From: a virus
Lineage: Duplodnaviria; Caudoviricetes
DNA: 64,000 bases
Strand: one strand, 5' to 3'
Virus record (IMG/VR): IMGVR_UViG_3300028591_000008
Span: 1 to 64,000 of that record
Positions 1 through 5,548 of the stretch are shown here, one piece after another (position 1 is the stretch's first letter; each line of letters starts with the position of its first letter). The position numbers and the translations under genes are program-made. The notes under the pieces are model-generated. The model had not been told where the DNA came from. It searched no databases and saw only the letters and a list, made by a program, of their open reading frames with translations.

Positions 1-92
1 TTTAGTGTCTATACTATATCACATTTTTGGAAATAATACAATAGTTTTTTTAGACGTTCTACGTCTAAGTTCTTTTTTGAGAAAACCGGGGA

Positions 93-410
93 TTACTCCC
101 CGGCCTTCTCCTTCTTCTTGGCCTCGGCCTTGGCCTTCTTTTCAGCGGCAGCCTTCTCGCGCTCGGCCTTCTTTTCGGCCTGCTCCTGGAGCTTCATCTG
201 GTAGTCGGTGCGCTCCTGCATACACTCGTCATAGTCTTTCTTGACGACTTTCACGACGATTTCCAGCACGCCCTCTTCGCCGTCCTCGACGATCGGCAGG
301 TTGCAGGAATTGGAAGTGACGAGGGCAACATCTTCGCCCTGTTCGGACAGGAAACCCATAATCTGGTTGATGTAACGGGCACGCGCGGCATTGGCAATAG
401 CAAGTTTCAT
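93..410 (-). CDS. Hypothetical early protein with K/A/E-rich coiled-coil tail
   Basis: AAGGAG RBS, own promoter, TAA stop inside a terminator hairpin. Confidence 0.85.
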   Translation of the reverse strand: MKLAIANAARARYINQIMGFLSEQGEDVALVTSNSCNLPIVEDGEEGVLEIVVKVVKKDYDECMQERTDYQMKLQEQAEKKAEREKAAAEKKAKAEAKKKEKAGE

Positions 411-554
411 TTGGTTTTATCTCCTTTCCTTTTGTGATTATAATATACCACACTTTTAGGAAGATTACAAGGGGGAGACTTAGACGTTCCACGTCTAAAT
501 TCGATTTTGGAGAAACTTCACCACATTAAAGTAGTGAAGTCTCTCTTTTGGGAT

Positions 555-1304
555 TTAACGAAGAGTAATTTCCGTTTTGTCCTTATTGATACGGATTTTT
601 GTATAATCGAAATAATAGTCCGTTTGTTCTGCCGTCTTGATATGCAAAGTCTTTTCTACTTTGCGTTCAATGGAACGCTTCGCCATATATTCGCCGGAGA
701 AGTCCGCGCCGTTATCAATACACGCGAAAAGAATCTCCGTTTCAATCTCCGCGTCATTCAATGCCGTATGCGCTTCAATGAAGTCCGTATCATTGAAGAT
801 ATAACGGTAAACCGTTTCGGCGGTGGTGGAATAGTTACCAGTCTCCGTATAATAACTGTTTTCATCACAGAACGCTTTATATATATCATCAATGAGAGAA
901 GCATGAACAAAACCGCGAATATCCTTTACCGGGATATTGTCAAACGGATTGTTACATTTGTACCAGTCACAGTTAAAAGCGAAAACTTTCTCATCGAAAG
1001 AAGAATTGAAAGCATACGCAATCTCAACAGAGAGATTCTTGAAGTCCCGAATCATCTGCTGGCAGATGTAACCGAACTTGTCCATAACAGTAGTGCGGGC
1101 GCGCATTGCGGCGACATACAAAGGACGCTTGTCCGCGTAGTATGCAGACTGAAAAAGCGGGAGATTGTGCCACACTTGTTCCACAACAAAGGAACGGCGG
1201 CAGAGAATCGCGCGGGATTCCGTATCAGCAATGACATAGCCGATATTATAGCAAAAAGGCTTCTCCAAAGAAGTAGTTTCAGTGTCAAAAACGCAGATGT
1301 TCAT
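555..1304 (-). CDS. DEDDh-family 3'-5' exonuclease
   Basis: Motifs VFDTETT, AFNSSFD and HTALNDA; AAGGAG RBS. Confidence 0.88.
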   Translation of the reverse strand: MNICVFDTETTSLEKPFCYNIGYVIADTESRAILCRRSFVVEQVWHNLPLFQSAYYADKRPLYVAAMRARTTVMDKFGYICQQMIRDFKNLSVEIAYAFNSSFDEKVFAFNCDWYKCNNPFDNIPVKDIRGFVHASLIDDIYKAFCDENSYYTETGNYSTTAETVYRYIFNDTDFIEAHTALNDAEIETEILFACIDNGADFSGEYMAKRSIERKVEKTLHIKTAEQTDYYFDYTKIRINKDKTEITLR

Positions 1305-1449
1305 ATTCAGAACTCCTTTATATAGTGTTCAGTGGGAGTAACTTCTTTTCCCTCCTGACATTATGAATTATAGCAAAATTATAGGAGAAAGTCAAGAACT
1401 GGTTTTAGACGTTCCACGTCTAAGATGGATTTTGTGAAAAAGGGACTTT

Positions 1450-1878
1450 TTACAGTCCCTTTAATACGCTAAAGATTTCTTTTTCTGTATATGCTCCATC
1501 GCCCCACGCTTCCCGGTTATGCGCTTCATCGTCAAAAAGGATTCCGTTCCCGAAAAGCTCTTTCGGTGTGCCATAGGGGAGAATCTGGATGGAAGTGAAC
1601 TTGACCGAGTGCAAATGAGTTTCGAGCCATTCCTTTTTGACGGCGGCCACCGCTTTGTTATATGCGGCCGAGCCGTTGCGGCTGGTCCAGCTAATGACGT
1701 TGACGGTCCATCCGTCACGAATCAGCCGATTCAGAATCCGCGCCAGGGCCTGGAGATTGACGAGCGGGCGCGCCACAGCGTAGGGCCGCACATCTTCATG
1801 CAGAAGATCCTCTAACCAATTAGGGACGCCGTAAAGATCGGCAATTGTGCCGTCCATATCAAAGTAAATATTTTTCAT
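1450..1878 (-). CDS. HAD-superfamily 5'(3')-deoxyribonucleotidase-like phosphatase
   Basis: YFDMDGT (DxD motif I) and ILFDD (motif IV); start taken at MKNIYF after the RBS. Confidence 0.85.
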   Translation of the reverse strand: MKNIYFDMDGTIADLYGVPNWLEDLLHEDVRPYAVARPLVNLQALARILNRLIRDGWTVNVISWTSRNGSAAYNKAVAAVKKEWLETHLHSVKFTSIQILPYGTPKELFGNGILFDDEAHNREAWGDGAYTEKEIFSVLKGL

Positions 1879-2001
1879 ATTTTGTTTACCCCTTTCTCTA
1901 TCGTGATTAAAGTATATCATAATTTTCGGAGAATTGCAAGAGGAGACTTTAGACGTGAAACGTCTAAATTATATTTTGGGAGAGATTTTACTCTCCCATC
2001 T

Positions 2002-2220
2002 TTACATAAAAAGTATATAAAGAATAATGCCGCAAATAATAGGAAAGACACCATAACGGATGACTTGCACGATTGCAAAAATAGGATAAAAGAGCAGCCA
2101 AGGGCCATCTTCACGAGACATGCTCCAATTGCAAGTCATTAAATTCCATTCCCAATGTTTGGCAACACGTGCCATCGTCCACAAGAAGCACAGAATAATA
2201 ATTAAAAAAGTTTTATCCAT
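2002..2220 (-). CDS. Small membrane protein (about 2 TM segments)
   Basis: Hydrophobic N- and C-terminal stretches; AAGGAG RBS; own promoter. Confidence 0.75.
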   Translation of the reverse strand: MDKTFLIIILCFLWTMARVAKHWEWNLMTCNWSMSREDGPWLLFYPIFAIVQVIRYGVFPIICGIILYILFM

Positions 2221-2357
2221 TTGTTTTATCTCCTTTCTTACTGTATCTATATATTATCATAAATTTTGGGATTTGTCAAACCTCTATTTTAGACGTTGCA
2301 CGTCTAAACCCAAAAAATTACGAAACGGTAACATTTCTGTTACCGTTTCGATTTGGG

Positions 2358-2711
2358 TCACTCGGCCAGAGCCAGAGAGTAGATCACGCGACGCGTCTTG
2401 TCGATCTTGGCCTCGCGCTTGGTGATAACACCATTGGCCAGAAGCACCTTACAAGCGGCGGTCACCTGTCCCGGCGTGATGTTGAGCTGGGCGGCAATAC
2501 CGTCACGGGTGCAGACCTCGTGCGGATTGGTCAGGAAGAAGTTGCGGACAGCGTCCACACGGCCGGCGGCCTCGCGCTGTTCCTTGGTGGGGGTCGCCTT
2601 GCGCTTGGCGTTCTTCTCGTCCAGCTTCTGGATCAGAACGCGGCTGGCCTCGTCCATGGAATCGGAAATGTGAGCGTCAAGAACGGCCTGGAAGTACTCG
2701 CGAGTAGTCAT
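2358..2711 (-). CDS. MTTRE-type protein with C-terminal winged helix-turn-helix (paralog A)
   Basis: Start MTTREYF after AGAAAGGA; C-terminus TRDGIAAQLNITPGQVTAACKVL...RVIYSL; clearly similar to 2894-3232. Confidence 0.8.
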   Translation of the reverse strand: MTTREYFQAVLDAHISDSMDEASRVLIQKLDEKNAKRKATPTKEQREAAGRVDAVRNFFLTNPHEVCTRDGIAAQLNITPGQVTAACKVLLANGVITKREAKIDKTRRVIYSLALAE

Positions 2712-2893
2712 AGTTTTTTCCTTTCTGCGCGTTTGCGCTTGCGGTAGGTCGCAACCCTTATTTTTATTTTGTCCCTTTCCCTTGGGACAATTGTATATTA
2801 CCATACTTTCGGGAGAATTGCAATACCCTATTTTAGACGTTCCACGTCTAAATCGTAATTTTTTGAAAAGGGGAGATTTCTCTCCCCTTTCGG

Positions 2894-3232
2894 TCATGCG
2901 ATGGAGTAAGCGACCTTGCGCGCCTTGTCCACCTTGATTTCGGACTTGGCGACCAGTTCGCCCAGTGCCTTGCACGCGGCACCCGCCTGAGCGGGAGTCA
3001 TGTCGAGAACTCCGGCGATGGTGTCACGGGTCACGGGTTCGGTCTGCTCCTTGAGGAAGGCAAGGACAGCTTCACGGCGAGCCGCAGCCTCCTTCTTCTC
3101 CTTCGTCTCCGTGCCCTTGCGCTTCTCATTCTTTGCGTCGAGCGCGGCGATCAGCTCGGCGGCCTTCTCGGTCAGCTCGGCAGGCAGGTTCTCAGCGTTG
3201 ACGATAGCGGTGTAGAATTCACGAGTGGTCAT
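2894..3232 (-). CDS. MTTRE-type protein with C-terminal winged helix-turn-helix (paralog B)
   Basis: Start MTTREFY after AGAAAGGA; TRDTIAGVLDMTPAQAGAACKAL...KVAYSIA. Confidence 0.8.
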   Translation of the reverse strand: MTTREFYTAIVNAENLPAELTEKAAELIAALDAKNEKRKGTETKEKKEAAARREAVLAFLKEQTEPVTRDTIAGVLDMTPAQAGAACKALGELVAKSEIKVDKARKVAYSIA

Positions 3233-3414
3233 TGTATGGTCCTTTCTGCACATTAGTGCCACGGCGTTTGGTCGCCACCCTTATTTATTGCCGGGGTTCC
3301 TTTCCCCCTTGCAAGTATAATATAACACAATGGTTGGAGAATTGCAAGAGGGGAACTTAGACGTTACACGTCTAAATGGACTTTTATGAAAAAAACGGGA
3401 GAAAATCTCCCGTT

Positions 3415-3594
3415 TTAACTAAATGGCAAAAAATTTGGAGCAAAAGCGAGAATAGCAAGCGCGCAGAAGAGAAGACCGAAGAAAGTCATAGAACCTACCC
3501 ACGCTTCAAAAAAGTCGGCGTCTTTTTGATGCCATAGCCACCATCCACCGAGAGACATGATGACGAGAATCAGTGCGATAAGATATTTACTCAT
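3415..3594 (-). CDS. Small 2-TM membrane protein
   Basis: MSKYLIALILVIMSLGGWWLW...FFGLLFCALAILAF; GAGG RBS inside the end of the upstream gene. Confidence 0.7.
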   Translation of the reverse strand: MSKYLIALILVIMSLGGWWLWHQKDADFFEAWVGSMTFFGLLFCALAILAFAPNFLPFS

Positions 3595-3595
3595 T

Positions 3596-3796
3596 TCAAT
3601 CCTCTCTTGCGCATCCGCTACAGTAACAGTGGCCATCGTCGTCGATCAATGCGGACGGTGACGACATTGTCATGCCGCAACATGTGCACGCCACGATCAT
3701 CGGCAGACCGTTCTCAGAAAACCAACTTCCGGGAATGGAGTCGTGCGGCATTTCCAGACCGAGATCCTGTTCAACAAAATTTCTGAAATTTTTCAT
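3596..3796 (-). CDS. Small zinc-ribbon protein
   Basis: CTCC...CYCSGC; AAGGAG RBS. Confidence 0.75.
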   Translation of the reverse strand: MKNFRNFVEQDLGLEMPHDSIPGSWFSENGLPMIVACTCCGMTMSSPSALIDDDGHCYCSGCARED

Positions 3797-3915
3797 TTTG
3801 GGAATCTCCTTTCCTTTTGTAAGTATATATTACTATATTTTTCAGAAAATTGCAAGAACTGTCTTAGACGTTCCACGTCTAAACCTAATTTTGGGAGAAA
3901 ATTTCTCCCAAAACT

Positions 3916-4152
3916 TTAGTGGATTTGCCGCACGAAAAATTCTTTGATAATTTCGCCGGTTTCCCAACTGGTTTCGGCATACGTTACGCCGCCGTCGATG
4001 TACTCAACGACGTGGAGATCGTTACCACGGAAAAGATGCGCAGCGCACAGCTCACGAGCTTCGTCAAAGCTCTGGCACGGGGCGCCGATATACCGGTCGC
4101 GGAGATACGGATCGTCAACAAGGTGATTGCGCTCAACAACAGAAATAATCAT
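3916..4152 (-). CDS. Hypothetical early protein
   Basis: AGGGGG RBS, own promoter and terminator. Confidence 0.7.
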   Translation of the reverse strand: MIISVVERNHLVDDPYLRDRYIGAPCQSFDEARELCAAHLFRGNDLHVVEYIDGGVTYAETSWETGEIIKEFFVRQIH

Positions 4153-4284
4153 TTTTTAATCCCCCTAAAAAGTTTTTTGTTTGTTCCCTTGGAACGATTA
4201 TATATTACTATATTTTTGGGAGTTTGTCAACGGTCAAACTTAGACGTAACACGTCTAAAAAGAAAAATGGGAGAAAATCTCCCA

Positions 4285-4470
4285 TTACCAACCAAAATCA
4301 AAACGGTCTTCCCAATATACCAGAAAAGAAAAATCAGGATCAACAATGCCGACTGAAAAAGTCGCATCTTCAGTCCACAAAAATTCTACTTCTTCTTCGA
4401 CTTCTTCTTTTGTATCGAAAATGAGTTCTTCGATGCAACCATTGTCGTATTCAATAATAAGTTTATACAT
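4285..4470 (-). CDS. Small, very acidic hypothetical protein
   Basis: GGAGG RBS before MYKLIIEY; E/D-rich. Confidence 0.72.
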   Translation of the reverse strand: MYKLIIEYDNGCIEELIFDTKEEVEEEVEFLWTEDATFSVGIVDPDFSFLVYWEDRFDFGW

Positions 4471-4567
4471 TTTGGAAACCTCCATTTCTTTTGTAACTAT
4501 AATATATCACTTTTTGGAATAAAAGTCAATCCTCTGAATTTAGACGTTTTACGTCTAAACTATTTCT

Positions 4568-4762
4568 GAAAAAAAATGGCGGGACGTCCGGAGGTAAAAG
4601 ACGTTGCCCGCCCCGTCGTATCAATTTTAGGAGAGTTTCGGGAAGTGACAGAAGGCATTAAGTTTATCACTCGACTTTTTGGAGAATTTCTTATCCTTTT
4701 CTGCACTTACCGGCGTTCTTATTTCGGTTGCCCTACTTTGTCCGCCCGACTTCCCTCTCTGT
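4568..4762 (-). ncRNA. Putative ~190-nt structured non-coding RNA
   Basis: Palindrome-promoter unit 11 has no ORF with a clear RBS. The 5' end GAGAGGGAAGU pairs with ACUUCCCGAAACUCUC (4631-4646). It ends in a GGCGGG..ACGUC/GACGUCCCGCC hairpin plus U8. Confidence 0.6.
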
Positions 4763-4845
4763 GATTATAATATACTACTATTTTGGGAGAATGTCAATTC
4801 CTCGTTTTAGACGTCACACGTCTAAATCTACTTTTGGGAGAAAAA

Positions 4846-4995
4846 TTATTCTCCCAAAAACACGTCTCGACTTCGCCAGAATTTTAGATCTTCATCTTCA
4901 TACTTTTCTTTTTCTCTAATTGCTTTCACGAGAAAATAAATAGAGAAAATAATTACCAGACTTACCAGTACTCCCCAGCTCACCGGATTATCCAT
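4846..4995 (-). CDS. 49-aa single-TM peptide (not in ORF track)
   Basis: MDNPVSWGVLVSLVIIFSIYFLVKAIREKEKYEDEDLKFWRSRDVFLGE; AAGGAG RBS; promoter TTGCAA-17-TATAAT at 5026-5054; TAA inside a terminator hairpin. Confidence 0.75.
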   Translation of the reverse strand: MDNPVSWGVLVSLVIIFSIYFLVKAIREKEKYEDEDLKFWRSRDVFLGE

Positions 4996-5059
4996 TTCCA
5001 GCTTCTCCTTTCATTTTCTATATATATTATATCACGAATTTTTATAGCTTGCAAGTTTT

Positions 5060-5181
5060 GGATTGAGCCGCAGCTTACAGCTTTTGTGCGTTTGCGAGGT
5101 ATATCGCTTGCGTGGGGATTCGCGGCGCTGCGCTGCAGGGATAGTGGCTGATTGCCCGCTCTTGTCTATCCCTTGCCCACT
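5060..5181 (-). ncRNA. Putative ~120-nt structured non-coding RNA or leader
   Basis: Follows promoter TTGACC-17-TATAAT (5188-5216); no ORF or RBS. Stem AGGGAUAG/CUAUCCCU, plus nested GCAGC/GCUGC and GCAGC/GCUGU stems enclosing two small hairpins. Confidence 0.5.
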
Positions 5182-5343
5182 ATGGATATTATACCACTAT
5201 CGGCGGCCGCGGTCAAGCGACAGACTTAGACGTGCCACACGTCTAAGTCGGTTGCATACAATTGGTTATACATATCTAACTCAAACACGTCTAAATTGAT
5301 TGTATGTAATCAGTTAGATATGTCTAACTACTAAGCAAGAAGT

Positions 5344-5365
5344 AAAGCAAGTAATACTTGCTTTA
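5344..5365 (-). terminator. Hairpin after the 5366 gene
   Basis: AAAGCAAGTA-A-TACTTGCTTT inverted repeat right after the stop codons. Confidence 0.55.
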
Positions 5366-5548
5366 TCATTCACAACTACTTTTATATTCATTATACGCGT
5401 CAAGTATAGACTCCCAACTACTATGAGCACATGGGGCGCTGCCGTAGGCATTCAGATTCCAAGCTTGAGCAGTATTCAATTTGCCCTTGCTTTCAAAGCG
5501 TTTCTTGTCTTTCTGCGCTTGTCTATCCAGCTCTTCCATGTAGCTCAT
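5366..5548 (-). CDS. Hypothetical protein
   Basis: GAGGAG RBS before MSYMEEL. Confidence 0.7.
   Translation of the reverse strand: MSYMEELDRQAQKDKKRFESKGKLNTAQAWNLNAYGSAPCAHSSWESILDAYNEYKSSCE

Follow-up and report, generated by a model that had tools for sequence, protein, structure and literature searches.

The stretch of viral DNA analysed here (the window, 64,000 nucleotides (nt) in full) is the first 64 kb of the 124,253-bp IMG/VR virus record IMGVR_UViG_3300028591_000008, which belongs to the Caudoviricetes. Its positions 1-5250 form an array of minus-strand cassettes, each with a palindrome followed by a sigma-70-type promoter, and terminator-palindrome-promoter junctions separate 11-12 cargos. 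The palindrome heads every cassette of the array, with 11 copies within 1-4826 against a chance expectation of 0. We describe one of these cassettes, whose cargo is probably a structured non-coding RNA (Table 1). An earlier note on this DNA had pointed to a palindrome, a TTGACA-17-TATATT promoter and a strong terminator enclosing approximately 190 nt, and all of these are indeed present on the minus strand. The promoter matches the consensus at 11 of 12 positions, and the transcript would start at approximately 4762, 7 nt past the -10 box, and end within the U-run. The terminator hairpin has a predicted free energy of -18.8 kcal/mol; because its loop is 11 nt long, it was missed by our terminator scan, which allows loops of 3-8 nt only. 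The conserved stretch of the linker that precedes it also precedes related terminators in other cassettes.

Table 1. Features of the RNA cassette and of the cassette upstream of it (window coordinates)
Feature	Position	Strand	Details
Palindrome, presumed operator	4806..4826		TTTAGACGT-N3-ACGTCTAAA; full sequence TTTAGACGTCACACGTCTAAA; 8 bp upstream of the -35 box
Sigma-70/sigma-A type promoter	4769..4797	-	TTGACA 4797-4792, 17 nt, TATATT 4774-4769
Non-coding RNA, ~195 nt	4568..4763	-	Covariance-model match of 156.7 bits; homologues; no credible open reading frame
P1, 5' strand GGGAAGU	4749..4755	-	Pairs with 4640-4646; 100% of cells paired in 18 sequences
P2 arm	4713..4745	-	P2a GCG 4745-4743 / CGC 4715-4713; purine-rich internal loop; AGUA/GAA; 2-bp stem; GCAA loop
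P2 tip	AGUA 4737-4734; GAA 4725-4723; 2-bp stem and GCAA loop 4733-4726	-	AGUA and GAA are invariant columns
P3 arm	4647..4706	-	Base helix 4706-4700 / 4652-4647; AU/AAUG internal loop; variable tip
P3, inner parts	GG 4696-4695 / CC 4655-4654; AAG 4692-4690 / CUU 4662-4660	-	GG/CC invariant; AAG/CUU is the apical helix
P1, 3' strand ACUUCCC	4640..4646	-	Partner of 4749-4755
A/U-rich single-stranded linker	4613..4639	-	Conserved UAAAAUUGAUACGAYGG (alignments)
Intrinsic terminator	4569..4612	-	Stem 4612-4600 / 4588-4578 (6+5 bp), 11-nt loop 4599-4589, U8 4576-4569
Upstream cassette, 49-aa peptide	4846..4995	-	N-terminal membrane helix (MDNPVSWG...); adjoins the RNA in five of six lineages

Homologues of the element were found in related virus and metagenome contigs, where 18 distinct copies fall into six lineages: the window with L075; L068; L024 with L076; L058 with L079; the L025 group; and L029 = L071 = L088. 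A palindrome scan of viral contigs gave 60 loci, eight of which proved to hold homologues in nhmmer and blastn searches with the element; a single scan of metagenome contigs returned 14 loci, and our covariance model, R1, confirmed every one. Patterns for the terminator and for the 5' domain found nothing further among the viral contigs, and four extra loci returned there by a looser 5'-domain pattern were non-members by covariance-model score; copies that lack a terminator score 81 bits with R1. Palindrome, promoter and terminator are kept in the homologues, with an identical palindrome-promoter layout upstream of every copy. Among 37 related palindrome-bearing virus records, six scored with R1: full-length copies lie in four (G036, G013, G037 and G005, the last of the L029 lineage), and two (G006 and G031) match mainly via the terminator module. 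Counting the genome of the window itself, the RNA is present in just five records; it is accessory cargo.

The RNA matches no catalogued family that we searched. Rfam 15 (4227 models) gave 0 matches over the whole window at gathering thresholds, and nothing overlapping the element (L001 1509-1703) at E<=10 on the 3.2 kb around it; ARAGORN detected neither a tRNA nor a tmRNA in the window; and blastn of 3800-5400 against the GenBank phage collection gave no match. Among 185,579 reference prokaryote genomes, neither of two pattern scans turned up a copy, and the first had 0 matches. Three matches to a looser pattern (L081:3540-3575, L082:187-222 and L083:7043-7078) are chance matches inside one conserved ArsR/rhodanese-like coding gene of Ignavibacteria-type metagenome-assembled genomes. 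For comparison, over 10,000 candidate structured RNAs of phages were reported from a survey of IMG/VR (PMC10690425).

The copies share a three-way junction of helices P1, P2 and P3 followed by the terminator. RNAalifold, run on a plain MAFFT alignment of seven copies, recovered P1, P2b (the 2-bp stem near the tip of P2), P3 and the terminator, with eight compensatory pairs, and inspection of the six lineages by eye added P2a, the three pairs that close the P2 arm, and one apical pair of P3. The closing stem proposed in the earlier note, between the 5' end and a segment approximately 110 nt downstream, is P1; it is present in every homologue, and two of its pairs have changed on both sides in the 18-sequence alignment. 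P2a reads GCG/CGC in the window and L076, ACG/CGU in L024, GUA/UAC in L068, AUU/AAU in L029 and UG/CA in the L025 group, and its column pairs vary in concert (columns 30-60, UA:14 and CG:4; columns 31-59, GC:16, AU:1 and UA:1). The long P3 arm holds a pair of conserved internal loops; five of the six pairs of its base helix covary (pair 83/118, for example, is GC in 12 copies and AU in 6), and the P3 tip differs in length and sequence among copies. The strands at the junction are purine-rich and near-invariant (...AAAGUA before P2b, GAAAURAGA after P2b and GRUAARAG before P3). Hammerhead and K-turn readings of the junction were rejected on inspection, as the core sequences misfit. CsrA-type sites were likewise set aside, since the conserved GGA motifs sit in predicted helices and one alone resembles the CsrA consensus.

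Statistics over the 18 sequences point the same way, with the reservation that the alignment behind them was fitted to the covariance model, which favours pairing: standard pairs make up 95.6% of cells, compared with 33-54% once the 3' partners have been shifted by 1-3 columns; both sides change in 15 of the 33 pairs, compared with 6.5 in shuffles, of which 0 of 500 attain that number; and the covariation score of 0.266, compared with 0.131 in shuffles, is likewise attained by 0 of 500. The independent MAFFT result and the comparison of lineages by eye agree with this model-fitted alignment. P1, P3 and the terminator each include G-U pairs, where the opposite strand would give A-C mismatches; because these pairs fit only a minus-strand transcript, the folding strand is the minus strand. 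Judged by these comparisons, the fold is under selection. The earlier proposal that the cargo of the cassette is an RNA is thus well borne out, by conservation in six lineages, covarying helices, strand-specific G-U pairs, the lack of a conserved frame (see below) and the retention of promoter and terminator. We consider it probable, and hold with reasonable confidence, that the cassette is a gene in its own right whose product, a structured non-coding RNA of approximately 190 nt, belongs to an uncatalogued family and travels as accessory cargo of a small clade of rumen-type phages.

Three features of the RNA go beyond what the earlier note had claimed, namely a loop complementary to the Shine-Dalgarno (SD) sequence, the tip of the P2 arm and, in one lineage, the use of the domain as a gene leader. 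At the P2 tip, none of the 18 sequences departs from AGUA and GAA, and the 2-bp stem between them covaries: it is CC/GG in four lineages and flipped to GG/CC in two, including the window (CG:15 versus GC:3 among the 18 copies). Sixteen copies have GCAA or GAAA as the loop, and the other two have ACAA and AAAA, one each. AGUA opposite GAA, a short stem and a GNRA-type cap make up the sequence signature of the bulged-G (S-turn) module of sarcin-ricin-type hairpins, and the RNA carries this signature, with the S-turn geometry itself predicted from the sequence. The same build (AGUA-CC-GNRA-GG-GAA) occurs in 23S rRNA of Escherichia coli, as AGUACCGUGAGGGAAAG at approximately nt 453-469 of the annotated gene, where AGUA, a 2-bp CC/GG stem, a GNRA tetraloop and GAA follow in the same order and the L025 group agrees with it at 15 of 17 nt. 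In contrast, the window has the stem flipped to GG/CC and the flanks differ; because of this flip, the likeness is one of architecture and not of sequence identity. The P2 tip is not the sarcin-ricin loop proper (helix 95 of 23S rRNA), which has GAGA on a single C-G pair, as P2 has GCAA or GAAA on a 2-bp stem.

The second feature is ACCUCC at 4595-4590 in the terminator loop, which is identical to the core of the anti-SD sequence of 16S rRNA. It is invariant in the 16 full-length copies, whereas the stem beneath it covaries and has four different sequences, and its predicted probability of being unpaired is approximately 1.0 in seven of eight folded sequences and 0.62 in L068. Within this genome, this type of terminator occurs once. 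Two cassettes elsewhere, likewise without a gene and with other interiors, end in a GAUAC-terminator with an ACCUCC loop (L009:11610-11760 (-) and L091 = G031:C1:51111-51249 (-)); both start with 5' AAGGG(G)A, and the one in G031 also has the CUCUCCUUAAAUUA stretch. These shared ends may be a reusable frame for several small RNAs.

Conserved, unpaired, SD-complementary C-rich motifs in hairpin loops are shared by RNAIII of Staphylococcus aureus, in which hairpin 14 is the terminator hairpin, by the UCCC-motif Rsa RNAs and by CyaR of E. coli. Ribosome-binding sites are blocked by such C-rich or anti-SD loops, as in loops 7, 13 and 14 of RNAIII and in CyaR (PMC2837412). The RNA described here differs from these regulators in being phage-borne and in having a three-way-junction 5' domain with an rRNA-like arm, which they lack; it has no sequence or structural homology to them (no Rfam match), and among the phages' own genes no specific target with extended pairing was found for it.

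In the mechanism that we propose, the host-type promoter, headed by the palindrome of the array, would fire into the three-way-junction domain. Promoter type and position in the array suggest that the RNA would be made early, alongside the surrounding host-takeover genes, and it is presumably abundant. Action in trans is suggested by the strong terminator and the new promoter that lie ahead of the next gene, and by the lack of conservation of that downstream gene. The purine-rich junction and the rRNA-like P2 arm would give a compact fold, and the structured 5' domain may serve as a stability or protein-binding module, a partner protein probably setting stability or specificity. Binding of ribosome-binding sites, of a protein or of both is the likeliest role of such a trans-acting early RNA. 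For the loop, our preferred but tentative suggestion is, as a possibility and no stronger, that the exposed ACCUCC pairs with ribosome-binding sites of the GGAGGU type (GGAGG) in the manner of RNAIII and CyaR. It is also possible that the RNA serves as a decoy for some RNA-binding or defence protein, and a role purely as a protein or toxin decoy seems to us unlikely; a decoy role for the rRNA-like arm, the anti-SD loop or both agrees with the anatomy just as well as the pairing mechanism does. The suggestion of the earlier note that the RNA is a decoy for host RNA polymerase was not upheld. 6S RNA is similar in having approximately 190 nt and in the paired ends of its 5' domain, but it is a long rod with a central bubble, whereas the RNA of this cassette is a three-way junction with a separate terminator, and it gave no match to the 6S model.

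Several observations weigh against an independent, trans-acting RNA. The overall fold is no more stable than that of shuffled sequence (z = -0.49), and because the folding energy is ordinary, the case for structure rests on covariation and not on energy. The covariation statistics in turn rest on few independent events, as six lineages are known. In the L029/L071/L088 lineage (L071:1361-1796), the domain stands without a terminator, and 8 nt past P1 there follow AAGGAG-N7-ATG and an open reading frame (ORF) for a membrane-anchored product of 94 aa, an arrangement that suggests a role in cis. A related ACCUCC-loop terminator closes at least one protein cassette, in G031 (at approximately 49,730), so the loop may belong to the terminator module and not to the RNA. 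Finally, GGAGGU(A/U) is the usual ribosome-binding site of the genes of these phages themselves; for this reason the loop has no identifiable specific target and would hit phage messages. Its best pairings, of 7-8 nt, are to the common GGAGGUA(A) sites of the phages' own genes and have no co-varying flanks.

The genome around the cassette is that of a phage with an altered code. The ends of the record (1-127 and 124127-124253) overlap by exactly 127 bp, and the assembly is therefore circular; the 'direct terminal repeat' looks like the overlap left by circularisation of the assembly rather than a biological repeat, and the cassette array, with a palindrome at 49-69, probably continues across the record ends. 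When TAG is read as a sense codon, coverage of the plus-strand block at 8-40 kb by long ORFs rises from approximately 0.2-0.4 to approximately 0.95-1.0 and the longest ORF grows from 3969 nt to 7590 nt. For the structural block at 40-64 kb, the standard code suffices to give open frames. By this evidence of frames the phage of the window reads TAG as a sense codon. ARAGORN found 22 tRNA genes at 92-112 kb of the record, none with a CUA anticodon.

The cassette upstream of the RNA encodes a membrane-helix peptide of 43-56 aa across five lineages and is treated as context rather than as an established part of the RNA unit; its Pfam match to Spore_YhaL is below the cut-off and it has no PHROG match. 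The sixth lineage has another gene in this position, and the 94-aa product described above is not homologous to the peptide. Downstream, the neighbouring cassette may encode any of three unrelated small proteins. Searches of PHROGs and Pfam with the neighbouring proteins gave no informative family matches. Beyond the peptide cassette, window 5000-5260 (-) and its equivalents in L025, L058, L005 and others hold no credible ORF, only short GC-rich frames, and this stretch is consistent with a second gene-less transcript.

The array has a parallel in the PeSLs of T4-type phages, promoter/terminator stem-loops that punctuate small non-essential genes and seem to permit modular exchange of cargo (Arbiol et al. 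2010, PMC2839356). As in those cassettes, a strong sigma-70-like promoter and a terminator stem-loop lie between small genes and cargo is exchanged; by the published definition (PMC2839356), the frame of the cassette is of the PeSL type, and the cargo beside the RNA differs between relatives. The array differs in belonging to another phage group and in adding a 21-bp palindrome at a fixed distance from the -35 box. Moreover, PeSL describes the frame of a cassette only, not an RNA cargo with a conserved fold of its own. The RNA shares single traits with PeSLs, with anti-SD riboregulators (a conserved, unpaired loop motif complementary to the SD sequence) and with rRNA hairpins; from its sequence it is a member of none of these families and, by comparison with Rfam, it is new.

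Among other explanations, the one that survives best is that the RNA mimics rRNA, its 23S-like hairpin and anti-SD core soaking up a host protein such as an rRNA-cutting toxin or a ribosomal or translation factor; we regard it as rather improbable. The invariance of AGUA and GAA around a flipping stem, in a build identical to that of the E. coli hairpin, would fit such mimicry, as would an invariant ACCUCC loop that is predicted to be exposed. The RNA also sits within an array of small early genes of unassigned function, and toxins that remove the anti-SD sequence from 16S rRNA exist (PMC12274833). However, bulged-G modules and GNRA loops recur as parts of many RNAs, the P2 loop is GCAA or GAAA on 2 bp instead of the sarcin-ricin GAGA on 1 bp, with two variants (ACAA and AAAA) besides, no partner protein has been identified, and nothing ties the hosts of these phages to such toxins. 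That the RNA imitates two rRNA sites at once, the 23S-type hairpin and the 16S anti-SD core, and, made at the start of infection, absorbs an rRNA-cutting defence toxin or captures a translation factor is in our view more doubtful still.

We also think it improbable that the junction domain is a cis-acting leader or attenuator, that is, a riboswitch-like or protein-binding sensor that controls what lies downstream via the terminator or a ribosome-binding site. The highly conserved unpaired nucleotides of the junction are typical of ligand pockets, and in L029/L071/L088 the domain is in fact the leader of a gene. In five of the six lineages, however, a strong terminator is followed by a complete palindrome and promoter, so that the next gene has no need of read-through, and that gene is one of three unrelated small proteins across lineages. 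Inspection of the alignment showed no conserved antiterminator pairing: the P1 3' strand or the 5' GGGCGG could pair with the terminator in some lineages only. No Rfam riboswitch or leader matched, and the two pattern scans of reference genomes returned no copy. Apart from the one lineage, the RNA does not behave as a riboswitch or other cis leader.

That the RNA is a type I-style antitoxin, or a regulator of the neighbouring small membrane peptide, we consider quite unlikely. A small hydrophobic peptide does lie next to it, just upstream in five of six lineages, whereas the downstream neighbour varies. Yet the RNA gene and the peptide gene are tandem neighbours on one strand, each with its own promoter and terminator, and there is neither antisense overlap nor extended complementarity: in a crude whole-length test, duplexes predicted between the RNA and the peptide mRNA were no better than those of shuffles, and the ribosome-binding site of the peptide, AAAGGAGAAG, is not complementary to the ACCUCC loop. 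The adjacency may instead reflect shared ancestry of the block, and the sixth lineage lacks the peptide.

It is very improbable that the region encodes a small protein. The earlier note had found one ORF, of 32 codons. This ORF exists (ATG 4656, stop 4560), lacks an SD sequence and crosses the terminator, as that note said, but it is not the sole ORF of the region: it is the inner part of a 48-codon ORF with a GTG start (4706..4560), also without an SD sequence and also crossing the terminator, and a 62-codon antisense ORF on the plus strand (4576..4764) had been overlooked. The antisense ORF is longer than in 96% of same-composition shuffles (3.8% reach 62 codons), and some antisense frame of 57-64 codons stands open in every homologue. 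The frames nevertheless differ among lineages, and the antisense ORF has neither a promoter nor an SD sequence. It is not conserved even in the nearest relative, L075, where a 1-nt indel shifts its frame; such indels between near-identical copies (window versus L075 and L025 versus L026) swap half of the putative product, the C-terminal one. The L025 group has, as read from the alignment, an 8-codon AUG...UGA mini-ORF across P2; it has no start codon in four lineages, and its residues flip together with the stem. Variable alignment columns are spread evenly over the codon positions (33/31/33, p = 0.95), without 3-base periodicity, and indels are mostly not multiples of three. Reading TAG as glutamine and allowing rare start codons on both strands yields only frames that cross the terminator, palindrome and promoter, none of them credible.

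It is just as improbable that the cassette is a functionless by-product of cassette shuffling, a promoter and terminator around leftover sequence, even though its terminator-palindrome-promoter junctions resemble those of the recombination-prone PeSL cassettes (PMC2839356) and only five of 37 related records carry the RNA itself (a sixth scored through its ACCUCC-loop terminators alone), because compensatory changes keep the fold in six lineages and the unpaired junction nucleotides are invariant, which is unexpected for neutral leftovers.

A structured non-coding RNA carried as independent cargo thus remains the reading that we favour. Small RNAs encoded by phages have been described before, but few of them show a conserved fold of tertiary appearance, and 'host-takeover' arrays of small early genes, most of whose products are without known function, have yielded almost none. 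With its defined ends, a junction supported by covariation, an invariant purine-rich core, a 23S-like arm and an exposed anti-SD loop, the RNA is a testable candidate. Should it block ribosome-binding sites or act as a decoy for a host protein, phage takeover or anti-defence would gain an RNA effector; if it should prove to be a two-site rRNA decoy, it would be an RNA-based anti-defence or takeover device of an undescribed kind. In either event, the RNA merits an entry in a catalogue of RNA families and offers a way into an uncultured clade of rumen phages with a recoded stop codon.

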